A stretch of DNA of 63,974 nt, filler included, from Candidatus Babelota bacterium (GCA_017999075.1; 6 parts of 6 records of this genome joined end to end with filler, not necessarily neighbours in it); one strand, 5' to 3'; counted from the first letter of the whole stretch, positions 7,001-55,677 are shown. Numbers and translations: made by a program. The notes: generated by a model not told the origin, from the sequence alone.

Positions 7001-10000
7001 TCATGCTTCCTGTATCTTGAAAAACATAGATGAAACTGTCTGTTCCTGAAGTATAGTAATTCCAATAAGATGCTATACTGTCACCCACGCCGTCGTTTAT
7101 ACCAAGTTTAATATAATTTATTCCGAATCTTAAATTATTCGTTTGAACAATGTAATACTGTGAATCATTTCTGCAGGAAACATCATATTCAGGAGAACTG
7201 AAATCTGAATTATTATCAATCAGCAGATGAATATCAGTCTGCGGATTTAAATCTGCATCAGAATAATTCCAATTTAAAACAAAAGTATCATTTTTGTTAA
7301 ACCGCAAATTAATGTTAGGAGTATATCCGTTTAAAGTCAAATTGTTTGCAACCGGAGAAATATTAGATCTGGCTGCAAAAGGATTACTGTCTCCGAAATA
7401 TCCTATATAATAAACTGCATTATTATTATCGGCAGAATTATCAAAATCCAAATCAACATTTTCAGGACATATTCCGGTTTCATTTGTTATACTTGAAAAA
7501 CCAGATCCATAATAAATGTTTCCTGCGGGTAAAGAATCATAATAATTATTTTTTAAAGATACTGCATTAAACAGATTGGTTGATAAACTGTCATAAAATA
7601 TATTGTTAAAATAATACGTATCATTTGCAGAATTCGAAGTAACCGAACTATAACACGATAAGAATAAATTATTATATATACCAACTTTTATAGAAATTCC
7701 ACCGGTAAAATTTAATGCATTGTTTGATATATTTTCAAATGTGTTATTTACAATAAAAGTAGTATCGGCGCTTCCTATACTATATGATACCGCATTATAT
7801 ACATTTTTAAAATAATTATTCAATACTTTGTCGCTTTCATATATTTTCACAGCATCTGAAGAAATATTCAAAAATTTATTGTTAAAAAATTTTGAATTTC
7901 CATATAACCCGTCAACTCCATAATAACAATTTATAAAATTGCAATGTTTTATTATTGAATTGGAATTTGAAGAAGCATTAATAAAATCTACAGCTTTATA
8001 AAAATTAACGAAATCACAATTTGAAATATATAAATTATCAAGAGGTTCAGGTGCAATGCTGTTTGCTGCAAATAAGATATTATCAGTATTTGAACTGTCT
8101 GCTCCGGTAAAATAAAATCCTCCAACTCTTACACCTGGTTTAAAAATTACACGTATTCCGGAATTAAAAAAGAATTTAGGTTTTGTATCATTTATTTCAT
8201 CATACCCTGAATGAAACAGTTTTGAAATTATAAGCATTCCTGTATCAAGATAAAGAGTATCGCTTACAGTATAAGAATCTGAAGAATGAGAATATACAAC
8301 AATTGTATCGAATCCATTATTAGGATTTAATAGGTTTAGTGCTGCTGCAAGAGAAGGAAATGCTGTAGCAGTATCTCCTGAAGCAGGGTTGCTCGCATTA
8401 CCTAAATCACTTACATAAACTTTTATGCTGCCTGTATCGTAAAACTGCGGAGTATTTACTTTAAACGAATTTGAATACCAGCTTTTATTATAAAACTGCT
8501 GATTCGCGTAAACATGAGAATCATAGGCTGAAATTTTATAATAATATGTTTCACCTGAAGAAACAGTATTGTCAGTAAAATTAGTATCATCTGCATTATA
8601 GAATGTATTTACTAAATATGGCTCCCAATTATTCGTATCACTTTGAGTAAAACGGTATAATGTGTATCCTGCAATCTGCGTATCTCCTGAAGTTAAAATT
8701 CCTCCTTCTTCTTCATTTACAGGTTTACTCCAAACTAAAGTAACCTGTCCGTAAACCGAACTATCGGCATTTAAAATTACAGGCGATGCAGGCGCTACAG
8801 TATCAGCATTTAAAGAAGTATCTATTTTTGAAGTCCTGTAAGGAACAAAATCAATTTTATCAGCTTGAACTCCGCCGATCATATTTCTTATTATTGAAGA
8901 ATCACTTGTTCCCCAATAATTATATTCAAAATTTATAACTGATGCAGATGCTGAAGTAACAGCCATATTAGGCGAATGCATAGACGGAATAATAACATTT
9001 TTCTGGAATGTATCTCCTGAACCTGCAGTATAATTTATCTGGTAATTGGCATTTGAATCAAAAGTATTCTGAAATACATAACAGTTGGTGCCTGCGCTGC
9101 CAAACTCTATTCCATAACCCGCATTATTTTTAATTATATTACGTTCAATACGCATATCGCTGAAAAATACCATACTTATACCGTCAATACCGTTACGATA
9201 TATCAAATTATCAGTAATATTGTTGCTTATAGCAGTATTTATCATTATGCCATCTGATAAATTGTAACAGATATTATTTCCGGATATTAAATTGCTGTCG
9301 CTTGAAGAAATCATATTAAAACCATACTGTCCATTACTGTAAATATTGTTGTTCACAAATTTATTGTTCAAACTTGCCGACAGATAAAATCCGTCCCACG
9401 TATTGGTTTCAGAAATATTATTATAAAAATAGTTTGAATCGCTGTTATTGTTTAAAGAAAACCCGTCAGAGGATACTGATGCTCTGTTTCCTGTAAACAA
9501 ATTTGAATCTGCGTTATCCATCATAAATGCGGCCTGATTAGTATTCCCTGAACTTATATTATATTGAAATATATTGTTAAACGAACCAGAAATCCAGAAA
9601 CCGTATCCTGCTCCTGAAGGTATATAACAATTTGAAATGATATTCCCTGAAGCGCCGTTCTGTAAATACATTGCGCTGCCGCCGTTAACAGAACCGTCAA
9701 GTTTAACAGAATCTATCACAGATGAATCCACATTATTAAACCAGATATTATTTCTTCCATTTGTAACCCGAATATTTTTCAAGTATAAATTTGATTTGTT
9801 TAAAGCATAAATTCCGCGCGCTGCCTGAGCTGTTGTATTATTGAAATTTATTATTGTTGACACAGAATCAACACCTATAACTGAAATGCAATTTGTATCT
9901 ATAACAAAAGTATCATTTTCAAGATATGTGCCGGCATCAATATAAATTGTATCTCCTTCAGTTAAGAATCCTTCGAGATCGTTTAAAAACCGTTTGGGTG

Positions 10001-11115: not shown

Positions 11116-11215
11116 NNNNNNNNNNNNNNNNNNNNNNNNNNNNNNNNNNNNNNNNNNNNTTAATTAATTAANNNNNNNNNNNNNNNNNNNNNNNNNNNNN
11201 NNNNNNNNNNNNNNN
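11116..11215. other. Artificial contig linker
   Basis: N-run, TTAATTAATTAA (stops in all frames), N-run. Confidence 0.99.
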
Positions 11216-14469: not shown

Positions 14470-16050
14470 TTATCTAATTTCCAAATTAACAGTTTTCGTT
14501 GAAACATTTTCAGCGCGGTCAGAAGCTTTTACTGTAATATTCTGGTATATTGTCATATTTTTTTTGTGACCTGGAGGAGCAGGCGGCAAATCCGGTCTGA
14601 TAATATTCAACCTTGCTTCCCATACTTGATATGAATCTTTTTCATTTCCTTCAACACGTTTAAATGAAATATTATTAGATTCAACTTTATAAACTCCGCT
14701 GGTAGGTTCAGAATCTCTGATTTTCAAGGTTACAATATTATCTGTTACAACAGAAACAACATCAATCTCAGGAGCAAATGAATCAAGTTTTTGAATTTTT
14801 CTATCAACCTTTTTTCTGCCCGCTAAATAATAAACATATTGATTTTCTCCTGATTCAATTCCATTTCTTGAACCTTTAATCCTTACTTTTATATTTGCAC
14901 TTTTTTCTTCTGCGCTTATATCAAGAGTATTTTCTCCCTGTTCTAAAATCCAGCTGTATTTTATATTAGAACTAGAGCCTGGCAATTCATCGTTATTCAA
15001 TTTTACAGAAAAAAGATTATCAGGTAATTTCAAAGTTATCGAATTAATTCTAAAAATACCGGCACTGTTTGTTCTCCCGAAATATTCCAATGATTCGTTT
15101 TCAACAATTATTGTAACTGTTATTTCTCCTTCTATTCCTTCGCCTTCATTGTTTCTCCATTCTCCTGAAATATCAGGAATAATTACCTGTTTGGCAAATA
15201 CTGCAGTACCTGCTATTTCTACCTGTTTTTTATTAGTCCATTCTAAAATGTTAGAACTCGTAATATTTATAGAAGCCTCTGCTCCGCGGTTAATAACACT
15301 GTTAGCAGCAGGGAAATTAATTCTTGGTGAAGGAAGTTTACCGTATTGTTCTTGTTCAAAATTCTGTAAGGCTTCAATTGAACTTGTCTGTATATCCGGT
15401 GAAACAGAACCTGCGTCAAGTCTGCTTTCTTCTTCTTCTTTTAATTTTTTCTGTTCTTCAAACATTTGCATATCGGTTTTTAATGAAATAGGCAAAAGCG
15501 TTTCCCCTTCTTTGGCTGTTTCTTTTTTACTTATAGTACCCCGCTTACTTACTGCTATTTTTTCCGATTTGTTCAAAATAGTGTTTTTCCCATACGCTTC
15601 TATTTCAACAGTTCCATCTATAACAAGAAACTTTGATCCGTCAAATCCGTCAGCAACCTCAAAATCTGTTCCTCGCACTCCGGCTACTGCTACTGGAGTA
15701 ATTATTGTAAAACTGCTTCCCTGATTTATTTTTTTCATTACATTAGCTCGAACTCCTCCAAAATTTATTTTTAAATCAGGTGACGCAGTTGTTCCTGAAA
15801 CAGTCACTACAGAATTTTCTACAATTTTTAAAACGCTTCCATCGTCAAGTTTTACTATAGCAGACGATGCAAGAAATGTTTTTATAACATCGCCATTTTC
15901 AATTTTCATATTTAAATAAGCATGTGCCCAGCCGCTGCCTTTTTTTTGTATCTGGACATCACCTTCAACAAAATTCAGTATTCCGCCTGCTAACAATTGT
16001 ATTTCCAGCATAATCAGAAAAATAATATTTAAAATACATATTTTTTTCAT
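14470..16050 (-). CDS. FecR-domain exported protein with C-terminal Ig-like region
   Basis: GDVIKTFLASSAIVKLDDGS and ITPVAVAGVRGTDF FecR motifs; signal peptide. Confidence 0.8.
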   Translation of the reverse strand: MKKICILNIIFLIMLEIQLLAGGILNFVEGDVQIQKKGSGWAHAYLNMKIENGDVIKTFLASSAIVKLDDGSVLKIVENSVVTVSGTTASPDLKINFGGVRANVMKKINQGSSFTIITPVAVAGVRGTDFEVADGFDGSKFLVIDGTVEIEAYGKNTILNKSEKIAVSKRGTISKKETAKEGETLLPISLKTDMQMFEEQKKLKEEEESRLDAGSVSPDIQTSSIEALQNFEQEQYGKLPSPRINFPAANSVINRGAEASINITSSNILEWTNKKQVEIAGTAVFAKQVIIPDISGEWRNNEGEGIEGEITVTIIVENESLEYFGRTNSAGIFRINSITLKLPDNLFSVKLNNDELPGSSSNIKYSWILEQGENTLDISAEEKSANIKVRIKGSRNGIESGENQYVYYLAGRKKVDRKIQKLDSFAPEIDVVSVVTDNIVTLKIRDSEPTSGVYKVESNNISFKRVEGNEKDSYQVWEARLNIIRPDLPPAPPGHKKNMTIYQNITVKASDRAENVSTKTVNLEIR

Positions 16051-22254: not shown

Positions 22255-22354
22255 NNNNNNNNNNNNNNNNNNNNNNNNNNNNNNNNNNNNNNNNNNNNTT
22301 AATTAATTAANNNNNNNNNNNNNNNNNNNNNNNNNNNNNNNNNNNNNNNNNNNN
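22255..22354. other. Artificial contig linker
   Basis: N-run, TTAATTAATTAA, N-run. Confidence 0.99.
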
Positions 22355-23331
22355 GCAAACTTTACTTTGCAGAATTAGGGCTTTATTATTTCAATGCAAG
22401 ATTTTTTGATCCGCGGACAGCGTCTTTTATATCTCCAGACCCTGCGGACATAGATTTAAATGACCCGTTCACTTTTGCAAACCCCTATGCTTTTTGTAAT
22501 AATAATCCGTGGAGGTATACGGATCCCACGGGGATGTGGGTTAATGAAACTAATGAAAAGGGTTATCCACAATATAAGAGTAGAGGATTGGATATTGTTG
22601 ATAAAGCATATGATAGTATTTTAAATGTTGGTGGATTATTGCCTGGCGTTGGTTCTACTGCATGTAATATAGCTTCTAATATAAAAAGTTTTTCTAATAA
22701 TTCCGCTGGTAGAAATACATTTGAAATTACGTCAACAGGAATTGATCTTGCCGGCGATATAACCGAAAAATTATCTTTAAAAGCTTTAGGAAAATTATGC
22801 GGGGCATATCAATTATACGGTTCTGGGAAAAATTTTTTAGAAGCAATAAGTAATTATAATTCTCTAATTTTTGAAATAGCTCGGGAAAGATACGGTGGTA
22901 TTGTACAACCTACCAAAACATATCAACCAGCTGATATTTATACTAAAGCAAAAGAAAATATAGTTCGAAGCCATAATAATAATCTTTACACTTATAAAAA
23001 AAATGATGAAATTCTATATTCTACGTATGATAACGAAGTTTTTCACGCTCAAATTGCATGCAAAATAATTGAAGATGTTCAATTAAAATTACTTGAATTC
23101 TTTTTAGCTAATAATGATAAGGCAACAAATGACATAAAAAAATATAAATCTTTTGACATAAGTACTATTAAACATAAAGCAGTTTTTAATAATTTTTATA
23201 AAATTTTTAAACCAAAATTGGCAAAATATTCAGAAATTATTTTTAAAGTTCCGGATATCAAAGATTCGCAAGAAAAATATTTAAGAGCCGAGGATGGATG
23301 GAATGAATACCAAATTGTTCCGGATAACTAA
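22355..23331 (+). CDS. RHS repeat-associated core protein, C-terminal fragment with a ~265-aa putative toxin domain
   Basis: Frame upstream of ORF 22534 reads LGLYYFNARFFDPRTASFISPDP...NPYAFCNNNPWRYTDPTG, the Rhs core and DPxG cleavage motif. 5' truncated. Confidence 0.92.
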
Positions 23332-24316
23332 ATTATTATTGATTTGTAGTGTTATTTTTTTTTCCTATTGTACTGAAAATGCCAGTCAGTCTTCAAATGA
23401 TTTTAAAAATTCCGATAAAAATTACGATACTAATTATGAAAAAAAAATTCCCGATAACCCTCAACAAATATATGATATAACCCAAAATATAATCCGTAAA
23501 ATAAAAACAAATCCAGACTATATAAATGTAGAAGATAATTTTAATTTTTTAATATATCTATATACTCATAATAAAAAATACATCAATGCACATGAGTATT
23601 ATTCAAAAGGCATAAGAAGCGATATTATAGGTTCATTTAAAAAAAGTAAATCTGTTTTAAGTGATACTCAGATTGCTATTATTGAAAATCTTCCTGATAC
23701 ACGACTTCAATTTATTAATTTTCTCTTTGAAATGGGTTCAAAAAAATATTCTGATGATTATCTAATCAATATATTAAATAAAAAATTCGATAATTTGGTT
23801 AATAAAAATGATTCTTTGGAATATGATGATGTTTTTATATGTGTTGAAATATTAAATAAAATGCAATCAAAAAAAGCCATACCTTTAATAAAAAAAATTA
23901 TTTATAAAACTGACGATCATGCTTTGATATCAGCTTCTTTTCGCCTATTGAGTAAAGCAAATGAAAAGGATGTTATACCATATATTTATAATTTTTTAAC
24001 TTCCGCAAGGAGTCAATATGAATCAAGCATTTTGGGTAATTTTAAATATATCCAAGATGAAAAAACTATTGATTTTTTAATTGATTATGCTAACAATAAA
24101 ATAATTAAGCAGATAAACAAACATGATGATTTTTATAATTATACTGACTTAAGTAATATAATTGATGTATTTCAAATTGTAAAAGATAAAAAAGCAATAC
24201 CTTTTTTATATAAATTAAAAAACAAAGAAATTATTATAAATTTCAATAGATCGACTACATCAAAAGCTTTAATGGATGATGTTGAAAAAGCTATTCAAGA
24301 AATTGAAGGGAAATAA
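23294..24316 (+). CDS. Putative immunity protein, exported/lipoprotein-like with HEAT-like repeats
   Basis: Overlaps the toxin stop; hydrophobic N-terminus ending FFSYC; repeated KKAIPLI / KDVIPYI / EKTIDFL / KKAIPFL HEAT-like motifs. Confidence 0.65.
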   Translation: MDGMNTKLFRITKLLLICSVIFFSYCTENASQSSNDFKNSDKNYDTNYEKKIPDNPQQIYDITQNIIRKIKTNPDYINVEDNFNFLIYLYTHNKKYINAHEYYSKGIRSDIIGSFKKSKSVLSDTQIAIIENLPDTRLQFINFLFEMGSKKYSDDYLINILNKKFDNLVNKNDSLEYDDVFICVEILNKMQSKKAIPLIKKIIYKTDDHALISASFRLLSKANEKDVIPYIYNFLTSARSQYESSILGNFKYIQDEKTIDFLIDYANNKIIKQINKHDDFYNYTDLSNIIDVFQIVKDKKAIPFLYKLKNKEIIINFNRSTTSKALMDDVEKAIQEIEGK

Positions 24317-24489
24317 TCCTCTTACTGGCTACAAAATCAATCCGCGTGCATTGTAAATTTACAAATTGGTACCAGGTTTCTTCTTTCGCCTTTTTCATTT
24401 TTTGATGATAAAAATAGTGTCATTCTTCTACATTTCTACATTTACAATTTTCAACTTTGATTTTTCCTTGCTTTCAATTTTTTTCCAAT

Positions 24490-24960
24490 TCCTCCCCTCG
24501 TTCGTTCCGGCTTCGGTCGGCTGCGTATGTTTGCGGATGTTCGCCCAGTGTCGCATATCAGCGCCGATATACGACACAGGGCTGCCGCAAACCGCAGCCT
24601 TAGTCGGCAGTGCTTACACTGCCGCTCGCAGTCGCTCAAAAAATAAATAAAACGTTTTACCTTCAATTCATCGCATAGCCTTTCGGCTATTATTTTTTTT
24701 CGCTCCTGCGGCCGCTTGCGCGGACACCGTGCGCCGTTCTCTCTCTCGGGGAGGAATATTCCGAACACTCGCAACGATAGCCAAACGCTCGCGCTGATGG
24801 ACGCACGAAGCAACGCTGGCGTAAGTTCTCAAATTCCGGCGATTGAATCATTGCTGTCTGCTTCGTCATCACCAATCACATCACACACCGCAGACTTTGA
24901 CAAATACCAAGCCCACCCGCCGAAGCATAGCAAGTTTGCCGTGCACCCTTCAGAAATAAT
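24490..24960. other. GC-rich, hairpin-dense non-coding tract (structured RNA or ssDNA signal)
   Basis: Consecutive stems at 24507-24520, 24548-24577, 24580-24599, 24605-24624 and 24675-24690. Confidence 0.6.
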
Positions 24961-25312
24961 TTTGCATATTTTTTTTCAGCCAACAAATTTATATTTTAAC
25001 CAGCAAAAACAAATCACTGAAACCCCGAAAAATAAAGCATTTCAATAATACACAAATCTAAAACCGCATAAAACACTTACTTTCAACGCTTCAATATTCC
25101 AATCGCTGAAACCTATATAAAAATCTATATTTAAAATCAATACTAATTACGAACCCTTTAAAATCCGGCATTTCAATGTCTTTTAATTCAGGGTGCTTCG
25201 CCCACAAAGGAAAACTGCGGGTGCTTTGCAAACTTGCTAATCTCCGGCGGGTCAAGACTTGCGCGAGTAATCGCCCGCCGTCCTGCCCGAATCCCGCTTG
25301 CGCCGCCCGCGC

Positions 25313-25725
25313 AAACCTCCCCGTCCCGCCAAATTTTTTTGCGCCGTCATTCAGGACAAAAAATGATGATGGAGTATACATAATATCAATATTATGTAGA
25401 CCCGAAGGGCGAAGCGGCGCGGGAGTATCAAGCCAACTTACGATAAGATAATCTTATCGGAAGTAAGCCCGACCAGTCGAAGCCGCGCCTGCAATCTGAC
25501 ACGATGTCAGATAGGCAAGGATTGCCGGTGCAGAGTGCGGCGGAGGCGGGCGGGCTGGTGGCTGGTGGCAGGCGAGCCGCCGACATTGAAAAAAAATAAT
25601 TTTAAACAAAGGCGGCTCAGTCTGACAGATACTCCAAGCCGCCGCTCCAATCATCATTTAGCAATTCGTTTCAATTCATTTCTCAAAAGGCGGCAATCCT
25701 TTTATTTGGCGGGACGGGGAGGTTT
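25313..25725. repeat. Perfect 22-bp inverted repeat pair (25313-25334 and 25704-25725)
   Basis: AAACCTCCCCGTCCCGCCAAAT and ATTTGGCGGGACGGGGAGGTTT. Confidence 0.95.
25373..25464. other. Two Xer/dif-like tyrosine recombinase core sites
   Basis: AGTATACATAA-tatcaata-TTATGTAGACC (25373-25402) and ACTTACGATAA-gataatc-TTATCGGAAGT (25436-25464): 11-bp arms with inner ATAA/TTAT, as in dif. Confidence 0.7.
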
Positions 25726-25881
25726 TGCATTGCAATAAATCATTGCCGCAAATCACAATTGTAATTCATTGCAGTAAATCAATTGTAATTCGCGCCGCAT
25801 TAGGCAAATCGAAAAATGGCGGAGGGTGTTCAGCAAAAACAAATTTGCTACGGGGATTAGATATTTTAATAAAAAAATAAT

Positions 25882-25940
25882 TTGACATTACACTACAGTT
25901 ATTATAATATTGGCTTAAATGTAGTTTAATTGTAGTTTAT
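25882..25940 (+). promoter_or_regulatory. Sigma70-type promoter with ACTACA/TGTAGT operator-like repeats
   Basis: TTGACA (25882), 17 bp, TAATAT (25905); ACTACA in the spacer and TGTAGTTTA twice downstream. Confidence 0.6.
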
Positions 25941-25956
25941 TTTTCAAGAAAATATT

Positions 25957-26277
25957 ATGGAACTTTTAATTTCTATTTTGCAGGAAGAATTAGAAAACTC
26001 TAAAAATAAATTAAAACATTATGCGGAAAAATCTCCGATTCTTGCAAAAGCGCATTTACAACCAATTATAAAGGGCAAACAAAAATATTATTATTTAAAA
26101 TATCGTTCCGGCATTAAAATCAAATCTGAATATATAGGAAAACTATCAAAAGAAGAATTACAAAAATACAATCTTGAAATAGCCGAAGCCAAAAAAGAAA
26201 AGGAAATAATTCGTAAACTCAAAAATAGAATAAGATTTATTGAAAAAAGCTTGAAATACAAATCATTGACGGAATAA
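25957..26277 (+). CDS. Small basic protein, putative antitoxin/regulator partner of the nucleotidyltransferase
   Basis: IKGKQKYYYLKYRSGIKIKSEYIGK beta motif flanked by coiled coils; 5 bp upstream of the next gene. Confidence 0.6.
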   Translation: MELLISILQEELENSKNKLKHYAEKSPILAKAHLQPIIKGKQKYYYLKYRSGIKIKSEYIGKLSKEELQKYNLEIAEAKKEKEIIRKLKNRIRFIEKSLKYKSLTE

Positions 26278-26282
26278 ATAAA

Positions 26283-26963
26283 ATGAACCAAAAAAACGAA
26301 TTTAATAAAATCATACAAATAATTTTAGATAATGATTTATCAGAAAAAATAATTCTTATTGGCAGTTGGGCGTATTATTTATATTGCACAAAATTATTTT
26401 CAAAACCAAAAGAATTATCTACATTACGTACAACCGATATTGATTTTTATATTCCGAGACATTTACGAATGGATAAAAATATTAATGTTTGTAAAATTTT
26501 AAAAGAAAACGGTTATGAACACACAAAAGACATTGACGGATACGATAGATTTTTTTCACAGGATTTTAATATTGAATTTATTACAGATGAAATCGGCGCA
26601 GGTTCAAACAAACCATATCATTTAAAAAAATTGAATCTTGAAATCGTTCAACTTCGTTATACAAATTTATTAAGTCAAAATATAATAGAAATACCTTTTG
26701 CAAAAAATCAAATAATAAAAGTTCCGCAGCCAGAAAATTTCGCGCTTCATAAATTAATCATTGCAAATTTAAGGAAAAACAAAGGGAAAACAGATAAAGA
26801 CATACAGCAAGCAGTTGACATAATTAAAATTCTTATTCAAACAAAACAATTTTGCAAAATTAAAGAATTATATAATCAATTGCCTAAGAAATGGCGTAAA
26901 CGGATAGACAAAACTTTAGAAACTGCTAACGAATTTTATTTAAAAAATTTAATCAAAACATAA
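26283..26963 (+). CDS. Nucleotidyltransferase-fold protein (GSU2403/AbiEii-like)
   Basis: ILIGSWA, RTTDIDF, PENFALHKLI and KTDKDIQQA motifs. Confidence 0.75.
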   Translation: MNQKNEFNKIIQIILDNDLSEKIILIGSWAYYLYCTKLFSKPKELSTLRTTDIDFYIPRHLRMDKNINVCKILKENGYEHTKDIDGYDRFFSQDFNIEFITDEIGAGSNKPYHLKKLNLEIVQLRYTNLLSQNIIEIPFAKNQIIKVPQPENFALHKLIIANLRKNKGKTDKDIQQAVDIIKILIQTKQFCKIKELYNQLPKKWRKRIDKTLETANEFYLKNLIKT

Positions 26964-26971
26964 ATAATAAG

Positions 26972-27337
26972 TTATTTCATTAAATCAATTTTAGCTTTAA
27001 AAACTATAGATTTGATAACTTCTTTTATTATTTTTTTTCTTTCATCATCAATTTTTTCTACACCTTCAAAAAGTTCAATCAATTCTTTATCTTTCAATCT
27101 GTCTTTTGCCTCACTGTTTATTTCACCGGTAAGAATATAATCTATTGATGTTCCTAATGCTCGTGATAAGTATATTAATGTTTCAGCTGCCGGAATTATC
27201 TTATCATGTTCATATTTAGAAATCTGATTGTTGTCTACATTAATTTTAGTTGCCAATTCCAACTGTGATAATTTTTTATGCTGTCGCAATTCTTTAATTC
27301 GGTTGCCTAAAGTTTGTTTTATTTGTTTTTCTTTCAT
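26972..27337 (-). CDS. XRE-family HTH repressor
   Basis: LGNRIKELRQHKKLSQLELA...ISKYE...P...LSRALGTSIDYIL; divergent from the replication operon. Confidence 0.92.
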   Translation of the reverse strand: MKEKQIKQTLGNRIKELRQHKKLSQLELATKINVDNNQISKYEHDKIIPAAETLIYLSRALGTSIDYILTGEINSEAKDRLKDKELIELFEGVEKIDDERKKIIKEVIKSIVFKAKIDLMK

Positions 27338-27435
27338 CTCAAATTTGCCTCAATATTATTATTAAATTTCTATAAACATAATATTCTTTTAAAATTTTTA
27401 CAAGAAATAATTTTGAGCTGAAATAAAAAAACTGC

Positions 27436-27464
27436 TTGACAATTTAGTATCTACATACTAATAT
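27436..27464 (+). promoter_or_regulatory. Replication-operon promoter with a palindromic operator in the spacer
   Basis: TTGACA (27436), 17 bp, TAATAT (27459); TTAGTAT-ctac-ATACTAA palindrome at 27444-27461. Confidence 0.7.
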
Positions 27465-27554
27465 TTTAATTATAATACTAAAATGAATTTTTGGATTTTT
27501 TTTTAATTTTTCCGCTTTTAGCGGTCAGAAAAGTAAAAAAAGGGAATAGAAAAG

Positions 27555-27603
27555 AAAAAAGGACGTTCAGTTAATCAGTTTGGTCGCCGATAACCGAACG
27601 CCC
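27555..27603 (-). terminator. Intrinsic terminator of the antisense RNA
   Basis: Minus strand GGGCGUUCGGUUA...UAACUGAACGUCC (13 bp, two G-U pairs that pair only on this strand) followed by UUUUUU. Confidence 0.7.
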
Positions 27604-27642
27604 CGGCAAATTAAAAACGACTTAGTAAGCCGTTAATAATTA
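27555..27642 (-). ncRNA. Putative counter-transcribed antisense sRNA (~90 nt)
   Basis: Bounded by a consensus minus-strand promoter and a minus-strand intrinsic terminator, within the leader of the primase operon. Confidence 0.65.
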
Positions 27643-27648
27643 AACAGA

Positions 27649-27677
27649 ATTATACCACAGAAACGGCTCACAGTCAA
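27649..27677 (-). promoter_or_regulatory. Antisense promoter
   Basis: Minus strand TTGACT (27677-27672), 17 bp, TATAAT (27654-27649), with extended TG motif (TGgTATAAT). Confidence 0.72.
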
Positions 27678-27808
27678 TTTAATTCCTCAATTTTTAATTC
27701 CCTGTTTTTCGCGGTTTCTAAATATAACCGCGAAAATTTAGCAGTTTTCTAAATTCATAACGAAAACTGCAATTCTAAATAAATTATAGACGGCGGGAGG
27801 TGAAAACA

Positions 27809-28150
27809 ATGTCAGTAAAACTTAGCGATGTTTGGAATTGCGCGTATTTGTTAATCAACGGCGTTCAGATTGATAATGTTGAAGTAATAAACAATAACGA
27901 AAAATTATCAGTTTATTTTGTATTATCAGGAAAGGACGCGGAAAAACTCGATATGGAATTTAAGACCGGAAAAGCAAGCGCGAACATTACGCAGTTAAAA
28001 TTAACTGTTACGCATTTAAAAGATTTGATGTTCGACAAGCTGCGCGAAACGCGCGACCAGCAAAATTTTTCAAAACAAAATCTTATAAGGAAGGGAATTA
28101 AAAATGATAACCGTTTCAAAAGAAACTATCAGCAAAGCCAAAACTTCTAA
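27809..28150 (+). CDS. Small hypothetical protein leading the replication operon
   Basis: GGAGG RBS 8 nt before ATG 27809 (preferred over GTG 27800); overlaps the primase start. Confidence 0.7.
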   Translation: MSVKLSDVWNCAYLLINGVQIDNVEVINNNEKLSVYFVLSGKDAEKLDMEFKTGKASANITQLKLTVTHLKDLMFDKLRETRDQQNFSKQNLIRKGIKNDNRFKRNYQQSQNF

Positions 28151-30908
28151 CAATATTATAGAAGTCCTGCAGGAATGCGGAATTAAACTAATCAAAGAAA
28201 ATAATCACTTCAAAGCAATCTGCCCGTTTCACGAGGACAAAGAACCGTCATTAAAAGTTGATCCGCAAAAACAAGTTTATAATTGTTTCGGCTGCGGAAA
28301 CGGCGGAGACATAATCAAGTTTTTAATTGATTACAAAAAAATCGAATTTAAAGACGCTGTAAATTTTTTGTTGAGACGCGCTGGACTTCCTGAATTGATA
28401 ATTGACAATGAACAATTGACAATTACAAAAAAAAATTTAAATCACAAACCTATAATTGAAACACATCAAACAACCGAAAATGGAAAGCTGCAAAACACAG
28501 AAACACAATCCCCCCCCACCACCGCAAACGAAAAAAAAGAAATGACCGAAGCTGAGCGCGTTTCATTATTGAATCGTGTTGTTGAGTTTTATCATCAGAA
28601 ATTTTTAGAAAGCGAAAAGGCGCAAAATTATTTATTTCTAACACGCAAAATAAAAAATAAAAATCTCGCAAACCTATATAAAATCGGCTTTTGCGACGGT
28701 TCTTTAATGAAAACAATCGAGACACAACCCGAATACAAAACGCAATTAGTAACGCTCGGCGTTATCAAACAAAATGAAAAAACAAAACAATATTTTGAAG
28801 CGTTTAAAAACTGCATTGTGTTTCCAATATTCGACGAAGAAAATAATTGTGTGAATATTTACGGCAGAAAAATTATTGACGGCGAAATCAAACACTTGTA
28901 TTTATCCGGTTCAAATAAAGGCGTTTTTAATTGGCAGGCGGTAAAACAAAACGACGCGATAATAATTACCGAATGTATAATTGACGCATTTTCATTTATT
29001 GATTCAGGCGTTGAAAATGTTGTTTCGCTGTATGGAAAAAACAGCAGTCCAAAAGAAATGCTGCAATTATTCAAACAATACAAAACCAAAAAAATTTATT
29101 TTGCTTTAGATAATGACAATGACGGAAACAATACGCAGATAAAATTAACCGAATTATTTTCAAATGAGCTGCCGAACGCAAACCTTTACAAAATCAATAT
29201 TCCAAACGCTAAAGACATAAACGATTATTATTGTTTAAACATAGATAAAACACAGTGTTTGAGCGATTTAATCAAAAACAATTGCGAAGCGTTAAGAATA
29301 ATAAAACCGCTGAAAGAAAAAGTTGAAATCACATACGCGGATAAATATATTGTAATAAAAATCAAAGACATTATTTATAAAATCAAAGGGTTCAGCATAG
29401 CTGATCAACAGCGTTATCAAACGCAATTAAAGATCAATCTGCGGACAATTTATGATAATAATAATTACATTGACACGATTGATTTATATTCCGCTAAATC
29501 CCGCGAGACTTATAAAAAAGACTGCGCTGAAGAACTCGGAATTTTAGAAGAAACAATCAAAGACGATCTGAAAATAATAATTCAAAATCTTGAAGAAATG
29601 CTTGAAAGCAAGCAATTTTCGGCTTCCGCTAAAGAATATGAAATGACGGAATCTGAAAAGAACGAAGCATTGGAATTTTTGAAATCAAGAAATTTGTTTA
29701 AAATTATTCTTGATGATTTTGAAACCGGCGGATACATCGGCGAAGAAACTAACAAGCTGGCGGGATACCTCGCCGCTGTATCGCGCAAACTGCTTGAGCC
29801 GCTTTCCATTATGATTATGTCAAGGTCGGCGGGCGGAAAATCGACGCTGTTAGATCATGTTTTAAGTTTTATGCCGCCGGAAGAATATATAAAATACACA
29901 TCAGTAACAGGTCAGGCATTATATTATAAAGACGAAAATTCAATGGTCAATAAACTGCTTGCGATTGCAGAGGAAGAAGGAGCGGAAAAGGCGACATATT
30001 CGTTGAAAACATTTCAATCGGACAAGGAACTTAATATTGCTTCAACCGGAAAAGATCCGGTTTCCGGCAAATTAAAAACATTCGATTATAAAGTAAAAGG
30101 ACCGGTTTCATTATTTCTGACAACAACCGCCGCTGAAATAAATTACGAATTATTAAACAGGTTTATCGTTCTGACCGTTGACGAGGGTAAAATCCAAACA
30201 AACAATATTCAGGACCAGCAGCGTAATTCATTCACGCTCGAAGGGATTATCAAACAAAAGAAAAATGACACTGTTATCAGGAAACACCAAAACGCGCAGC
30301 GCCTTTTAAAACCGCTTGCCGTAGCGATTCCATACGCAAAATATTTATCTTACGGCGACGAGCAACTACGCGCAAGACGCGACAATAAAAAATATTTAAA
30401 TATAATTTGTTCAATTGCATTTTTACATCAGTATCAGCGCGAAATAAAAAAATATCAAAGCGGAAATATTATGTTTGATTATATCAACGCAGACCTTGAC
30501 GACCTCGAAGAAGCAAACAAATTAGCTGAAAAAATATTGATTCATACGCTCGACGAACTCGCTCCGCCTTCCCGCGATTTATTAAAAATAATAAATGAAA
30601 TGACTGAAAAACAGCGAAAAAACAAGGAAAAAGAAAAGAATAAAAACGATGACCCGATATCATTCACGCGCCGCGAAATTCGGGAAAATTCCAGATGGAG
30701 CGATTTTCAGATCAGGACGCATATCAAACAATTGGAAGATTTTGAATATATCCAAATTTTATCAGGGAATCAAGGCAAAAAATATTCGTATCAATTAATT
30801 TATGAAGGGAGTTACGGCAATAAACCGACAATAAAACTGACTTCAAAAGCGGAAGTTTTAGAAAAAATGCGGTTGGAAAAAGAACTTGAAAAAGCTTCTA
30901 AAAACTGA
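28104..30908 (+). CDS. DnaG-like primase (CHC2 zinc finger and TOPRIM) fused to a P-loop NTPase/helicase
   Basis: CPFHEDKEPS...NCFGCG zinc finger; IITECIIDA...ALDNDNDG TOPRIM; SRSAGGKST Walker A; LLAIAEEE Walker B-like. Confidence 0.9.
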   Translation: MITVSKETISKAKTSNNIIEVLQECGIKLIKENNHFKAICPFHEDKEPSLKVDPQKQVYNCFGCGNGGDIIKFLIDYKKIEFKDAVNFLLRRAGLPELIIDNEQLTITKKNLNHKPIIETHQTTENGKLQNTETQSPPTTANEKKEMTEAERVSLLNRVVEFYHQKFLESEKAQNYLFLTRKIKNKNLANLYKIGFCDGSLMKTIETQPEYKTQLVTLGVIKQNEKTKQYFEAFKNCIVFPIFDEENNCVNIYGRKIIDGEIKHLYLSGSNKGVFNWQAVKQNDAIIITECIIDAFSFIDSGVENVVSLYGKNSSPKEMLQLFKQYKTKKIYFALDNDNDGNNTQIKLTELFSNELPNANLYKINIPNAKDINDYYCLNIDKTQCLSDLIKNNCEALRIIKPLKEKVEITYADKYIVIKIKDIIYKIKGFSIADQQRYQTQLKINLRTIYDNNNYIDTIDLYSAKSRETYKKDCAEELGILEETIKDDLKIIIQNLEEMLESKQFSASAKEYEMTESEKNEALEFLKSRNLFKIILDDFETGGYIGEETNKLAGYLAAVSRKLLEPLSIMIMSRSAGGKSTLLDHVLSFMPPEEYIKYTSVTGQALYYKDENSMVNKLLAIAEEEGAEKATYSLKTFQSDKELNIASTGKDPVSGKLKTFDYKVKGPVSLFLTTTAAEINYELLNRFIVLTVDEGKIQTNNIQDQQRNSFTLEGIIKQKKNDTVIRKHQNAQRLLKPLAVAIPYAKYLSYGDEQLRARRDNKKYLNIICSIAFLHQYQREIKKYQSGNIMFDYINADLDDLEEANKLAEKILIHTLDELAPPSRDLLKIINEMTEKQRKNKEKEKNKNDDPISFTRREIRENSRWSDFQIRTHIKQLEDFEYIQILSGNQGKKYSYQLIYEGSYGNKPTIKLTSKAEVLEKMRLEKELEKASKN

Positions 30909-30927
30909 ATTTTGGAGTTATTTTTAT

Positions 30928-31055
30928 AACTTCGTGATTTTTTTAGCAACTTCGAGATAACTTCGAGATGACAAAATCACGAAGTTTGAGAACTCTGAAA
31001 CGCTGTATTTTATGTGGGTTTCAGCGTTTTTTTATGCAACTTCTATAACTTCTAA
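30928..31055. repeat. Iteron-like AACTTC(G/T) repeats and inverted repeats, putative origin
   Basis: AACTTCGTGA, AACTTCGAGA twice, 14-bp inverted copy (30928-30941 and 30973-30986), AACTTCTA twice. Confidence 0.6.
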
Positions 31056-31192
31056 ATTTCGCGTTGTGTGTTTTTTTAATTTTTTGTATTTAAAAAAAAT
31101 AAAACGCTTCATTATTTTTCAGAGCGGGTTAAATAAAAAATTGTTCCAATTTTTTGAGGCGGCAAAATAGAAATGGATTGGAGGATTAACAA

Positions 31193-32116
31193 ATGAATTA
31201 CTATGAAAAATTAAACGAATACATCGAGTATTTACAAAGTTTGAATTACGTTCAGGCTACAATAAAAGGCCGGAAATTACGGCTTTTGAAATTCATTGAC
31301 TGGCTTAATGAAAACAAATTTGCCGGTAAAAATTTAAATGTTGAAATCATCGAAAAATACAAAGACTATTTGATTCATAAACCAAACGAAAATTTTAAAA
31401 GCAAAAAAAATATAGCTGTCAGCACACAGATCAGGCGATTGATTTATATAAAACAATTTTGCTTATTTCTTGTAAAAACCGGTGTTTTACTGCATAACCC
31501 GGTAAGTTTAATCAAATATCCAAAAGTATATTATAAAATAAAATGGAAATTAATTACAGACGAACAACTTGCGGAAAAAATAAAAAACTATGAGTTGAAT
31601 TCGCCTGAAGATTACCGCAATCTCGCTATTGTAAAATTGCTGTATTCAAGCGGAATGCGAGCTGCCGAATTAGTATACGTAGAATTAGCCGACATAGATT
31701 ATGAAACTGAATTTGTCCGCATACGGCAGGCAAAAGGCGGAAAAGAACGGGTTGAGCCGATAAGCGCGGACACTGTAAAAACCTTGAAAAATTATGTTGA
31801 AAATCACAGGCCTGCACTTATAAATCACCTGTCGAAAAATTTTTTATTCGTATCCGGCGCAGGCGGAATACTGACAAATCCGGCATTATCTCGTTACATT
31901 CAAAAAGTAATCGGCAAAGAATATACGGCGCACTGTTTGCGCGTAGCGTGTTCTACGCATATGATGAAATACGGCGCTGATATACGTTTTGTTCAGCAGC
32001 AGCTCGGACATACTTCTTTAAATTCGATTGAACCCTATATACGGCTCGAAAAAAGCGAATTGAAAAAAATTCACACGCAGACACATCCGGCTGAAAAGAG
32101 GAAAAACAATGAATAA
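31193..32116 (+). CDS. XerC/XerD-like tyrosine recombinase 1
   Basis: SSGMRAAE, KGGKER, HCLR, LGH and Y catalytic motifs. Confidence 0.92.
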   Translation: MNYYEKLNEYIEYLQSLNYVQATIKGRKLRLLKFIDWLNENKFAGKNLNVEIIEKYKDYLIHKPNENFKSKKNIAVSTQIRRLIYIKQFCLFLVKTGVLLHNPVSLIKYPKVYYKIKWKLITDEQLAEKIKNYELNSPEDYRNLAIVKLLYSSGMRAAELVYVELADIDYETEFVRIRQAKGGKERVEPISADTVKTLKNYVENHRPALINHLSKNFLFVSGAGGILTNPALSRYIQKVIGKEYTAHCLRVACSTHMMKYGADIRFVQQQLGHTSLNSIEPYIRLEKSELKKIHTQTHPAEKRKNNE

Positions 32117-33038
32117 AATCGAAGAATGGAAAAAACTTTTTTTACAGCATTTGTATGCAAATAATTACAGCGAAAGCGCTCGGATAAATTATAATAGCGC
32201 GGTAAAAATTTATTTAAAATATTTGTCCGCAAATAATATTAAAGACGATAAAATATTCGAATATAAAACCGCGTTCGGATTCAAACAATATTTATCCGAA
32301 TACATAAATGCGCGCACAGGCCAAAAATTAACTGACAGCTCAATGCAAAATATTATGAGCAATATCAAAAAATTTCATTGCTGGTTAATAAAAAATTCAT
32401 TCATTTTCGTCAATCCTTTTGACGCGCTTGAATCATTTAAATCAAGTAAAATCCGGCTTAAACGCAGTATTCCGCTCGAAGATGTTTACAAGATATTAGC
32501 GCAGCCTGACTTAAAAAAAAATACAGGTTTCCGCGACAGGACAATGCTTGAAGTATTTTTTTCAACAGGCATACGCCGGGCAGAATTACAAAAATTAAAT
32601 ATTTACGACATCGATTTTACAAACGGACTTTTAAAAGTTCAGGGCAAAGGCGCGAAAGACAGAATTGTGCCAATCGGCTCAACCGCGCTTTCATTTTTAC
32701 GTAATTATATTGATAAAATCCGCCCGCAATTTTTAAAAGCTGACTCAGGCGAAGTTTTATTTTTAAGCTCTTACGGACCGGGCTTGAATTTAGCTACAAT
32801 CGGAGTATACACAAAAAAATATATAAAAGAATCGGGCGTAAAACAAAAATATTCCTGTCACAGTTTCAGGCATACGTGCGCCGTTGAAATGCTGAAAGGC
32901 AATGCTAATATTAAACATATCCAGGAAATGCTCGGACATTCAAAAATAACTACAACGCAGGTTTATACAAATATTTTACCTGTTGATTTGAAAAAAGTAC
33001 ATCTGCGCACGCACCCCTCGAATTGGATTTTCATCTAA
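32109..33038 (+). CDS. XerC/XerD-like tyrosine recombinase 2
   Basis: STGIRRAEL, GKGAKDR, HSFRH, LGHSKITTTQVYT; overlaps recombinase 1 by 8 bp. Confidence 0.94.
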   Translation: MNKIEEWKKLFLQHLYANNYSESARINYNSAVKIYLKYLSANNIKDDKIFEYKTAFGFKQYLSEYINARTGQKLTDSSMQNIMSNIKKFHCWLIKNSFIFVNPFDALESFKSSKIRLKRSIPLEDVYKILAQPDLKKNTGFRDRTMLEVFFSTGIRRAELQKLNIYDIDFTNGLLKVQGKGAKDRIVPIGSTALSFLRNYIDKIRPQFLKADSGEVLFLSSYGPGLNLATIGVYTKKYIKESGVKQKYSCHSFRHTCAVEMLKGNANIKHIQEMLGHSKITTTQVYTNILPVDLKKVHLRTHPSNWIFI

Positions 33039-33067
33039 GCGCGCACGCACCCCTCGAATTGGATTTT
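33005..33067 (+). repeat. 27-bp perfect direct repeat straddling the recombinase 2 stop codon
   Basis: GCGCACGCACCCCTCGAATTGGATTTT at 33005-33031 and 33041-33067. Confidence 0.95.
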
Positions 33068-33216
33068 TTTGTAAAAAAAAATAATACTTGTGGATATTTT
33101 ATTATAAAGTATAATTTCACTAATTAAAAATTTCGATAATAATTTTATAAATAAAAATCTTAAAAATATTGATTTTTATCGTGTTTTATCAATAAAAAAA
33201 TTAGTTGAATATTGAA

Positions 33217-33380
33217 ATGAAAAATCAAAAATTATTTAAATTATTTTTGCTGATAATTTCAATTTTTTTACTCATACCAATAACCGCATACAGCGCATTC
33301 GAACCGACAATAAAATTAAGTTTTCAAAGCGAAAATTTTTTAATAAACCGTGAAGTCATAAAGGAAAAAAACGAGTTAAG
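33217..33380 (+). CDS. N-terminus of a secreted protein (signal peptide), truncated by contig end
   Basis: MKNQKLFKLFLLIISIFLLIPITAYSA, an SPI-like signal; frame open to the contig end. Confidence 0.7.
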
Positions 33381-33480
33381 NNNNNNNNNNNNNNNNNNNN
33401 NNNNNNNNNNNNNNNNNNNNNNNNTTAATTAATTAANNNNNNNNNNNNNNNNNNNNNNNNNNNNNNNNNNNNNNNNNNNN
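33381..33480. other. Artificial contig linker
   Basis: N-run, TTAATTAATTAA, N-run. Confidence 0.99.
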
Positions 33481-44490: not shown

Positions 44491-44590
44491 NNNNNNNNNN
44501 NNNNNNNNNNNNNNNNNNNNNNNNNNNNNNNNNNTTAATTAATTAANNNNNNNNNNNNNNNNNNNNNNNNNNNNNNNNNNNNNNNNNNNN
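44491..44590. other. Artificial contig linker
   Basis: N-run, TTAATTAATTAA, N-run. Confidence 0.99.
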
Positions 44591-55577: not shown

Positions 55578-55677
55578 NNNNNNNNNNNNNNNNNNNNNNN
55601 NNNNNNNNNNNNNNNNNNNNNTTAATTAATTAANNNNNNNNNNNNNNNNNNNNNNNNNNNNNNNNNNNNNNNNNNNN
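55578..55677. other. Artificial contig linker
   Basis: N-run, TTAATTAATTAA, N-run. Confidence 0.99.

Follow-up and report, generated by a model that had tools for sequence, protein, structure and literature searches.

A compact contig with a fused primase-helicase, two Xer-like recombinases and an Rhs tip, possibly the circular form of a widespread family of replicative integrative elements

Gene content of the contig

The present analysis concerns a window of 63,974 nucleotides from Candidatus Babelota bacterium (GCA_017999075.1), i.e., the whole stretch of DNA that was analysed, which is made up of six contigs of ~11 kb each, separated by spacers of N44 + TTAATTAATTAA + N44 (11116-11215, 22255-22354, 33381-33480, 44491-44590 and 55578-55677), and does not represent continuous DNA. 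One of these contigs, at 22355-33380 and 11,026 bases in length, carries a putative mobile element with a predicted DnaG-type primase fused to a minichromosome maintenance (MCM)-like helicase, two Xer-like tyrosine recombinases, and the end of an Rhs core followed by a toxin tip. The coordinates assigned to this element in a preliminary description, which was made from the sequence alone, are exactly the contig ends; as these are bounded by spacers, the neighbouring window sequence is therefore unrelated to the contig, while features running across the spacers are artefacts. The components on which the argument depends are as follows.

33205 to 33380, plus strand: 5' part of the tip open reading frame (ORF), with an ATG start and a signal-peptide-like N-terminus (MKNQKLFKLFLLIISIFLLIPITAYSA...), running off the contig end
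22355 to 23331, plus strand: 3' part of the tip ORF, with the Rhs core end at ~22363-22539 (...ELGLYYFNARFFDP...NNNPWRYTDPTGMW), then a 263-aa C-terminal tip
23294 to 24316, plus strand: candidate immunity protein of 340 aa directly after the tip, with a lipoprotein-type N-terminus (...VIFFSYC), helical-repeat-like by eye
26972 to 27337, minus strand: XRE-family repressor of 121 aa (HTH_3, E 4e-15; RstR-like, E 5.6e-20, under the family cut-off)
27436 to 27705, no strand assigned: control region with face-to-face promoter-like sites, two conserved hairpins and a 45-nt invariant block
27800 to 28150, plus strand: small conserved DUF5659-like protein, overlapping the primase start and divergent from the XRE gene
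28104 to 30908, plus strand: predicted DnaG-type primase and MCM-like AAA+ helicase of 934 aa, with a zinc ribbon, a catalytic core, a Toprim domain and a C-terminal winged-helix-like end
30928 to 31052, no strand assigned: iteron cluster of AACTTCG[TA]GAT in three direct and one inverted copy (30928-30986), with two copies of AACTTCTA at 31038 and 31047
31193 to 32116, plus strand: tyrosine recombinase 1, 307 aa, Xer-like (Phage_integrase PF00589, E 3e-31)
32109 to 33038, plus strand: tyrosine recombinase 2, 309 aa, Xer-like (PF00589, E 1.5e-36), overlapping recombinase 1 by 8 nt

The XRE gene, the divergent small ORF, the primase-helicase, the iteron-like repeats and the two overlapping recombinases all lie where the preliminary description had placed them. 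Its statement that the contig lacks capsid, terminase and conjugation families is likewise borne out by Pfam searches of the contig ORFs and by PHROGs searches of 9 of these.

Rhs core end, toxin tip and candidate immunity protein

The contig had been credited with an Rhs toxin/immunity pair, of which the core end, the tip and a candidate immunity ORF are indeed present and carried as cargo; the part of the Rhs core on the contig is limited to its final ~60 residues, and the YD-repeat shell of a full toxin is missing, as no RHS_repeat match was obtained on the contig with Pfam. The core end scores 52 bits with TIGR03696 against a cut-off of 32.5 (E 6.7e-14) and E 1e-27 with our own Rhs-end hidden Markov model (HMM), and this PxxxxDPxGL-type core end stands ahead of a variable tip, as is characteristic of polymorphic toxins. 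Neither the tip (Pfam, PADLOC, PDB) nor the 340-aa lipoprotein (family, PADLOC and PDB searches) has a recognizable relative, and the latter is considered a candidate immunity protein from its position behind the tip.

The ORF that begins at 33205, upstream of which a promoter-like TTGTGG/17/TATAAT site was noted by eye, is in frame with the Rhs end across the circular join described below, because 176 + 164 + 2 = 342 = 3 x 114, and the two parts would be continuous provided that the 164 nt between them hold no stop codon. If the join holds, ~114 codons precede the core end, 55 of them within the 164 bases outside the window, and the joined product would be a protein of ~438 aa composed of a signal peptide, a short linker, the Rhs core end and the tip, without a YD-repeat shell. 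The Rhs piece is a short core end rather than a neighbouring full toxin gene, and in relatives of the element it is the attachment site itself.

Replication module and control region

The 934-aa protein matches Zn_ribbon_DnaG (E 1e-27), Toprim_2 and DNAG_N in Pfam, and its N-terminal 400 residues produced a PDB profile match to the DnaG primase 2au3 (E 1e-57). The C-terminal 500 residues are assigned to PF27228 in precomputed annotations and contain the Walker A motif GGKST. A structural model of this part, based on 25 homologues, reached a predicted local distance difference test (pLDDT) score of 83 and a predicted template modelling (pTM) score of 0.72, and Foldseek aligned it to MCM2-7 and archaeal MCM chains (E 1e-10 to 1e-7, probability 1.0; template modelling score ~0.44, normalised to the query). 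The DnaG match and the MCM-like model together therefore indicate a primase fused to an MCM-like AAA+ helicase.

The iteron cluster is located directly downstream of the primase gene, and is followed by an AT-rich stretch. It contains six AACTTC motifs in ~130 nt, whereas the entire 11 kb, with both strands counted, would be expected to hold ~7.6; it thus presents the clustered direct repeats beside an initiator gene and the adjoining AT-rich stretch that are seen in iteron replicons. The iterons are conserved in four close relatives (L001-L004, see below), and in L004 the unit ACTTCGAG is changed to ACCTTGAG in direct and inverted copies alike, a concerted change which is the pattern expected of protein-binding sites. 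From these sequence features, the cluster is a candidate origin, and the autonomous replication module of the preliminary description is upheld by the fused primase-helicase and the iterons that change in concert beside it. One direct and the inverted iteron copy form a 28-bp palindrome at 30959-30986 with 11-bp arms and a 6-bp spacer. This is probably the site meant by the dif-like sites reported previously, and it could be a recombinase site instead; in some lineages, the ‘iterons’ may be recombinase-binding sites. When 9-bp inverted arms with 6-8-bp spacers were sought without bias, 30 sites were returned versus 9.9 in shuffled sequences; most of the 30 are AT runs, and only the iteron palindrome stood out.

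The space of ~460 nt between the XRE gene and the small ORF holds promoter-like sites on the plus strand (27436-27464) and on the minus strand (27677-27649; TTGACT/17/TATAAT with TG, near-consensus). Upstream of the small ORF lies a noncoding block of 200 nt with 77% conservation; a stretch of 45 nt in it, to which the minus-strand site belongs, does not vary among four relatives with primases of just 52-80% identity to that of the window. The region may function as a face-to-face switch or encode a countertranscript. A structured RNA was considered here, and was not claimed, as each hairpin shows one compensatory change among four sequences. The XRE gene occupies the same place and orientation in many relatives. 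In an alignment of 21 homologues of the small ORF, DUF5659 was matched in 6 (best E 1.9e-6).

The recombinase pair

Both recombinases of the contig possess the complete R-K-H-R-H-Y set of catalytic residues, and the claim that the element has a recombinase pair of its own is thereby confirmed. Among 49 recombinase pairs from relatives, this set is present in all 49 second-position proteins and in 47-49 of the 49 first-position proteins. The two proteins resemble Xer recombinases, and are distinct from XerC and XerD proper, scoring 160-213 bits against cut-offs of 329.6 (XerD) and 335.15 (XerC); similarly, they do not qualify as integron integrases, with 77 and 82 bits against a TIGR02249 cut-off of 265. 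The two recombinases may work as a heteromer.

The circular join

The contig was found to be present in five public runs, and the Logan contigs of four of these were aligned to it. In run X2, which belongs to a study other than the probable source, a 572-nt contig with a depth of 4 spans the join from 33380 to 22355: its first 100 letters align with 33281-33380 and letters 265-572 with 22355-22662, leaving 164 letters in between. In run X1, the two terminal contigs extend 58 and 136 nt past the contig ends, which, given an overlap of 30 nt, again yields 164. These joins therefore describe an 11,190-bp circle, or an identical tandem, of which 11,026 bp are in the window and 164 outside, and a circle is the probable form of this copy. 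No terminal overlap was found in the contig or in L001-L006, and the case for circularity is accordingly that of the Logan contigs. Other Logan joints (e.g., 24249 to 33135 and 28442 to 33144) have shorter sides of 20-27 letters, and were taken as chance or as other organisms.

Relatives of the element and their linkage to Rhs ends

Of 8,000 proteins scored, 4,986 matched the primase family at E<=0.001, and most of the 120 family proteins listed come from contigs 3-12 kb in length. When one genome per species was scanned, 222 stretches with a relative were identified, the best 80 of which gave 79 loci. The hosts of these 79 loci belong to the Nitrospirota, Desulfobacterota, Omnitrophota, Acidobacteriota, Bacillota, Spirochaetes, FCPU426 and others, and several copies of the element per genome are common. 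In all, 84 loci were retrieved, and the 79 loci together with L001-L004 contain 85 primase modules. Two recombinase genes accompany 60 of these modules and a single one 13, while none is visible in the other 12, many of which lie in loci that end soon after the primase.

The HMM located 95 Rhs core ends in the loci, every one of them (95/95) on the primase strand. An upstream Rhs end within 6 kb is found in 31 of the 39 modules for which >=3 kb of upstream sequence is available, a downstream Rhs end within 2 kb in 25 of the 41 two-recombinase modules with at least 900 bp of room, and at least one Rhs end in 22 of the 23 modules with room on both sides. The nearest upstream ends (n=38) lie in frames of at least 3 kb in 11 cases, with 11 more in frames cut by the locus start, while all 28 nearest downstream ends lie in frames below 1.5 kb (median 711 nt).

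The closest relatives of the window element, L001-L005, are five metagenome contigs with primases of 52-80% identity. The order primase, recombinase 1, recombinase 2 is retained in the four that reach beyond the primase (L001-L004), and the small ORF precedes the primase in L002-L005, L001 starting inside the primase gene. L003 starts with an Rhs end like that of the window, but has another tip and another 159-aa ORF behind this tip, followed, after its hairpin, by a DUF4160/DUF2442 pair and then the XRE gene. In locus L056 (4681-18107), two tandem backbones that are 96.6% alike have a different Rhs tip ahead of each, and the whole of locus L013 is a tandem array of three related elements; both arrays look like the record of successive insertions. 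The conserved order predicted in the preliminary description, i.e., XRE, primase and two recombinases, linked to Rhs ends with variable tips, is borne out by these observations, as illustrated by the window and L003 and by L056. As a separate observation, L002 has two ~120-nt direct repeats, 93% alike, past its second recombinase gene near the contig end (7760-8031).

Full-length relatives of 33-37% identity are located on a plasmid of J. lividum, on megaplasmids of Caballeronia and Ralstonia, and on Leptospira plasmids. The first of these is a cultivated carrier:

306313 to 327123 of the Janthinobacterium lividum HAMBI_1919 plasmid (L086): same layout, one annotated recombinase gene

According to the annotation, a large repeat toxin with an Rhs end comes first, followed in order by a small ORF, VbhA, a helix-turn-helix protein, a toprim protein, XerC, and an array of small ORFs including Imm26.

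Exact ends and insertion sites in relatives

The ends of the element could be read from loci L016 and L017, which are on one 6.2-Mb contig and have in common a segment of 6,888 bp that is 99.985% identical and occurs in only these two copies in that genome. The segment starts with AGG GCA AGG TAT TAT GAT (R A R Y Y D) inside the Rhs core end, contains a tip, two small ORFs, the XRE gene, the primase and both recombinases, and stops 187 bp past the second recombinase at ...GGAATACTTAGG. In L017, an ORF of 1,295 aa with 14 RHS-repeat stretches (E 8e-104) reads over the left end into the tip of the element, and directly past the right end lie a truncated Rhs end, covering HMM positions 12-55, with a second tip, and then a tetratricopeptide repeat (TPR) ORF. 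This copy is fused in frame to a resident Rhs gene, whose old tip has been displaced.

When the right end of L017 is joined to the left, the sequence AATACTT-AGGGCA-AGGTATT results, in which inverted arms surround a 6-bp spacer on the R-A-R-Y-Y codons; on sequence grounds it has the form of a tyrosine-recombinase core site. A break at the same codon is seen in L013, L014 and L045 (GAAATCT|TGGCAC AGATTCT) and in L080, with perfect 7-bp arms (CCATCTA-GTCCGTAA-TAGATGG), while one further lineage breaks ~12 codons upstream, at a P-G-Q-Y-Y-D motif. The L016 copy (7780-7900 and 14770-14900) interrupts a gene with a divergent InlB B-repeat domain, which represents a secondary site outside rhs; because only AGG is common to the element ends and this target, the insertion is not one by homologous recombination. 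A comparison of the ends of the window contig, L001, L002 and L003 with all loci returned no shared right-end motif. It was also observed that three TTGTAGGGT repeats at 12630-12675 of L017, after the primase gene, resemble the element crossover core TTAGGGCA, and that a further copy is located at 14680-14710, near the right end.

Interpretation and alternative explanations

We consider the contig, with moderate confidence, to be the circular form (either a plasmid-like episome or a circle produced by excision) of widespread replicative integrative elements that carry Rhs tip/immunity cassettes. For the family, it is very likely that its members are small replicative integrative elements which insert at the conserved Rhs core end, with their own tip becoming fused to the resident shell; that the contig copy itself integrates into rhs genes is, judging from its relatives, slightly more probable than the opposite. 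In the mechanism that we propose, the XRE repressor and the face-to-face promoters would control an operon encoding the DUF5659 protein, the primase-MCM helicase and the two recombinases, and the primase-helicase would initiate replication of the circle at the iteron/AT-rich region that directly follows its own gene. The two recombinases would act jointly, in a XerC/XerD-like manner, on a core site within the codons of the Rhs core end, and would thereby insert the circle into a chromosomal rhs gene. Upon insertion, the resident Rhs shell would be fused in frame to the tip of the element, with the matching immunity gene adjoining, while the old tip/immunity pair would be pushed downstream as an orphan, repeated insertion giving rise to tandem arrays. 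The toxin-antitoxin (TA)-like pair would stabilise the episome, and the circle may also be transferred between cells.

Several observations weigh against this interpretation. The join is derived from low-depth Logan contigs (4 in X2), and an identical tandem would look alike; moreover, the 263-nt junction unitig of X1 has a depth of 21.8 versus 10.6-11.3 elsewhere, and a second context therefore shares this 263-nt segment. The continuity of the tip ORF is a matter of frame arithmetic across 164 unseen junction bases. As regards the relatives, the 79 loci are the best-scoring third of the matches and no random sample, and the Rhs-end HMM was built from tblastn hits in the same loci on which it was run. 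A single recombinase gene is present in 13 of the 85 modules, an Rhs end is missing in 16 of the 41 modules with downstream room and in 8 of the 39 with upstream room, and the split of first and second position in the recombinase tree holds for 91 of 98 tips with a weak support of 0.51. In L001, a gene with RHS repeats (E 1.9e-21) starts 300 nt past recombinase 2, and members of the L001-type subfamily may thus possess an rhs gene of their own instead of a tip alone. All evidence of integration comes from relatives with 32-42% primase identity: no integrated copy, attB, attL or attR was seen for the contig element or for a relative above 60% primase identity, and the junction region of the window has no clear inverted-repeat core at the equivalent codons. 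The earlier statement that the att sites are all visible in the contig is thus not supported, as the crossover site of this copy is not fixed and the 164 junction bases lie outside the window.

The principal alternative is an ordinary small plasmid that never integrates, in which replication is provided by the primase-helicase with the iterons and the Xer-like pair resolves multimers at the 28-bp 11-6-11 site, while the secreted Rhs-tail protein with its lipoprotein partner and the nucleotidyltransferase pair serve as competition and addiction modules. This explanation would accommodate the circle join, as well as the dif-like palindrome, which consists of iteron units, is located upstream of the recombinase genes and is conserved in close relatives; it is also in line with the promoter-like site, start codon and signal peptide that the tip ORF has of its own, with the TA-like pairs that occupy the same slot in relatives, and with the failure to find an integrated close relative. 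We nevertheless regard it as unlikely, given that chromosomal modules of the same gene order and family have precise ends in rhs genes, and that the crossover in L017 is at the element ends, so that the repeats behind the primase gene are not the crossover site. Furthermore, a core end of ~60 residues without a shell to hold the tip fits a spare part better than a finished toxin.

It appears rather improbable that the contig is a chromosomal island or tandem array in an rhs locus, the circle being an assembly effect of repeated Rhs sequence or of identical tandem copies. Arrays do exist in relatives (three copies in L013, two in L056), and the junction unitig at double depth in X1 is a repeat, at which the contig broke exactly; but the X2 contig crosses this repeat from the unique 33281-33380 into the unique tip (to 22662) with a depth as elsewhere, and the tandem copies of the relatives carry different tips, which would be unable to close a circle on one tip. 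The preliminary description had favoured an element like an integrative mobile element exploiting Xer (IMEX) or like a phage satellite. An IMEX has no recombinase of its own and is integrated at dif by the host XerCD, while a satellite of the phage-inducible chromosomal island (PICI) type is mobilised by a helper phage. The layout of repressor, divergent operon, primase-helicase and iterons does resemble that of staphylococcal pathogenicity islands, and the recombinases resemble Xer. The element nevertheless brings two recombinases of its own, at 160-213 bits against XerC/XerD cut-offs of 330-335, by which the IMEX reading is already refuted, and the insertions of its relatives lie in rhs genes and, in one case, in an InlB-repeat gene, not at dif. 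No capsid, terminase, small terminase, packaging, hijack or interference gene was found on the contig (Pfam; PHROGs for 9 of its ORFs), and none of the 175 matching phage records holds a match covering at least 80% of the primase. Taken together, a satellite or an IMEX is therefore highly improbable.

Relation to known systems and significance

Elements with more than one tyrosine recombinase gene include Tn554 and the recombinase-in-trio elements. Staphylococcal pathogenicity islands (SaPI), PICI and integrative plasmids such as pSAM2 combine a repressor divergent from a primase/initiator operon, iterons beside the replication gene, and an integrase, and they alternate between integrated and replicating circular states. 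Unlike these, the element described here has no genes for packaging or helper exploitation, differs in gene order, its two recombinases being located at the far end of the operon, and encodes a DnaG-type primase that is predicted to be fused to an MCM-like helicase. With integrons, the proposed mechanism shares the stacking of cassettes at a fixed site by a tyrosine recombinase, the newest cassette being expressed and older ones pushed downstream, and GC-rich imperfect palindromes lie behind the window cassette; it differs in that the recombinases score far under the IntI cut-off, that a whole replicon rather than a bare cassette inserts, and that expression is achieved by translational fusion with a gene already resident rather than by a promoter.

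The toxic ends of Rhs and other polymorphic toxins are subject to rapid change, for which displacement by tips arriving on hypothetical circular episomes has been the favoured explanation since 2009. In the model of Jackson et al. 2009 (PMC2935791), tips on a short core fragment arrive on a circular episome and insert at the rhs core end by host homologous recombination, the old tip being shunted downstream as an orphan; an episomal reservoir of tips is predicted, and in the account given there, no tip-carrying episome or dedicated enzyme for displacement was known. The present observations agree with this model in the full rhs gene upstream and the short orphans downstream of the relatives, and in the circular contig, and depart from its description in that a replication module and two tyrosine recombinases are encoded on the circle itself, and in the precise ends, the inverted-repeat core and the one insertion in an unrelated gene. 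The elements may, on balance, be the vehicle of Rhs C-terminal displacement: self-replicating episomes, present in at least ten phyla, with one cassette each, which would use a heteromeric Xer-like pair and a core site in Rhs codons to re-arm resident genes in frame, the window contig being a free circle with an intact attP. If this is true, the family supplies both the missing episome and the missing enzyme and explains why orphan tips pile up downstream of rhs, and the process could be tested in cultivated carriers, e.g., Janthinobacterium lividum HAMBI_1919 and Desulfosarcina alkanivorans PL12. A recombinase pair that targets a protein-coding motif with the frame kept would be relevant to site-specific recombination in general, and a bacterial DnaG-type primase fused to an MCM-like helicase would be an unusual replication protein.

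XerC/D genes next to polyimmunity loci are mentioned by Zhang et al. 2012 (PMC3482391), in whose text the word ‘Primase’ is absent from the first 300,000 of 357,715 characters, while a 2026 preprint (10.64898/2026.07.13.738213) mentions Xer-dependent systems by polyimmunity loci in Xenorhabdus and Photorhabdus. The rAID systems of Bacteroidales (PMC12247911), compared here by their description, comprise a tyrosine recombinase and orphan immunity arrays; as in our element, a Xer-like tyrosine recombinase is tied to orphan immunity genes and toxin fragments, and a recombinase-driven build-up is suspected. They are described as having one recombinase, a co-oriented array of short immunity genes and conserved intergenic motifs, whereas the window has a single tip/immunity pair, and the description, as far as it was available, includes no primase-helicase, XRE switch, circular form or in-frame insertion at rhs core ends. 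Tn6283 (PMC5991714) is likewise a small non-conjugative integrative element that has more than one tyrosine recombinase gene and forms a circle. Its IntA (467 aa) and IntB (731 aa) are large and mutually unlike, with no replication protein reported, in contrast to the two ~310-aa Xer-like paralogues in overlapping genes, the primase-helicase and the coding target with its frame kept that are found here. No published element with a primase-helicase and a recombinase pair in rhs was found in the literature searched, which did not extend to subscription journals and supplements (the neighbourhood tables of PMC3482391 may list such elements), and a prior description of this element type is possible.

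Other features of the contig and of the window

Three further features of the contig are as follows.

24340 to 25900, no strand assigned: GC-rich noncoding stretch (38-42% GC versus ~30% elsewhere) with three long hairpins and two conserved segments
25957 to 26963, plus strand: 106-aa ORF, then a 226-aa nucleotidyltransferase (26283-26963; NTP_transf_8 PF12281, E 1.4e-21)
33005 to 33074, no strand assigned: 36-bp tandem duplication, which repeats the last codons of recombinase 2 directly past its stop codon, with 27 bases identical (2 matches, 0 expected)

The preliminary description had listed a nucleotidyltransferase pair, which corresponds to the two genes at 25957-26963; the second gene indeed has a nucleotidyltransferase domain, but the upstream 106-aa ORF belongs to no family, and searches of PADLOC and PDB returned nothing for either member. 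The slot of the pair is occupied by DUF4160/DUF2442 in L003, by ParE in L002 and by VbhA in J. lividum, and the 106-aa ORF and the nucleotidyltransferase probably constitute an addiction or toxin-antitoxin-like pair. The 27-nt repeat behind recombinase 2 was considered as an att site and rejected, as it has no third copy in the window.

The hairpins of the GC-rich stretch, at ~24489-24760, 24915-25252 and 25313-25725, have fold z-scores of -6.1, -4.2 and -10.3, and include the inverted repeats I1 and I8. The segments 24788-24918 and 25734-25882 are conserved in relatives, while 24919-25733, with two of the three hairpins, is missing from L003, which has a single GC-rich hairpin (z -12.4). The third hairpin, of 413 nt, is bounded by 22-nt perfect terminal inverted repeats; over 210 nt, its interior matches another X1 contig, which is 3,443 nt long and of higher depth, with 15 mismatches and 4 gaps, and loose contig ends occur at 25604 in three runs. 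In view of the absence from L003 and the recurrence in X1, at least part of the GC-rich stretch looks like inserted repeats resembling miniature inverted-repeat transposable elements.

With Rfam, only one tRNA reached the gathering threshold in the window; on the contig, RT-17 and Ysr197 appeared at E<=1, both far under their gathering scores, and were taken as chance. The other five contigs of the window carry ordinary chromosomal genes, such as those for nonribosomal peptide synthetases (NRPS), ABC transporters and a giant beta-helix protein, and no second Rhs end was found in them with our Rhs-end HMM. The first contig (3-10985) is filled by an ORF exceeding 3,661 aa, of which a 1,662-aa stretch was scanned and showed beta-helix/NosD repeats, and in the last contig (55630-63974), two NRPS modules with condensation, adenylation and carrier domains lie on either side of a radical S-adenosylmethionine (SAM) gene.

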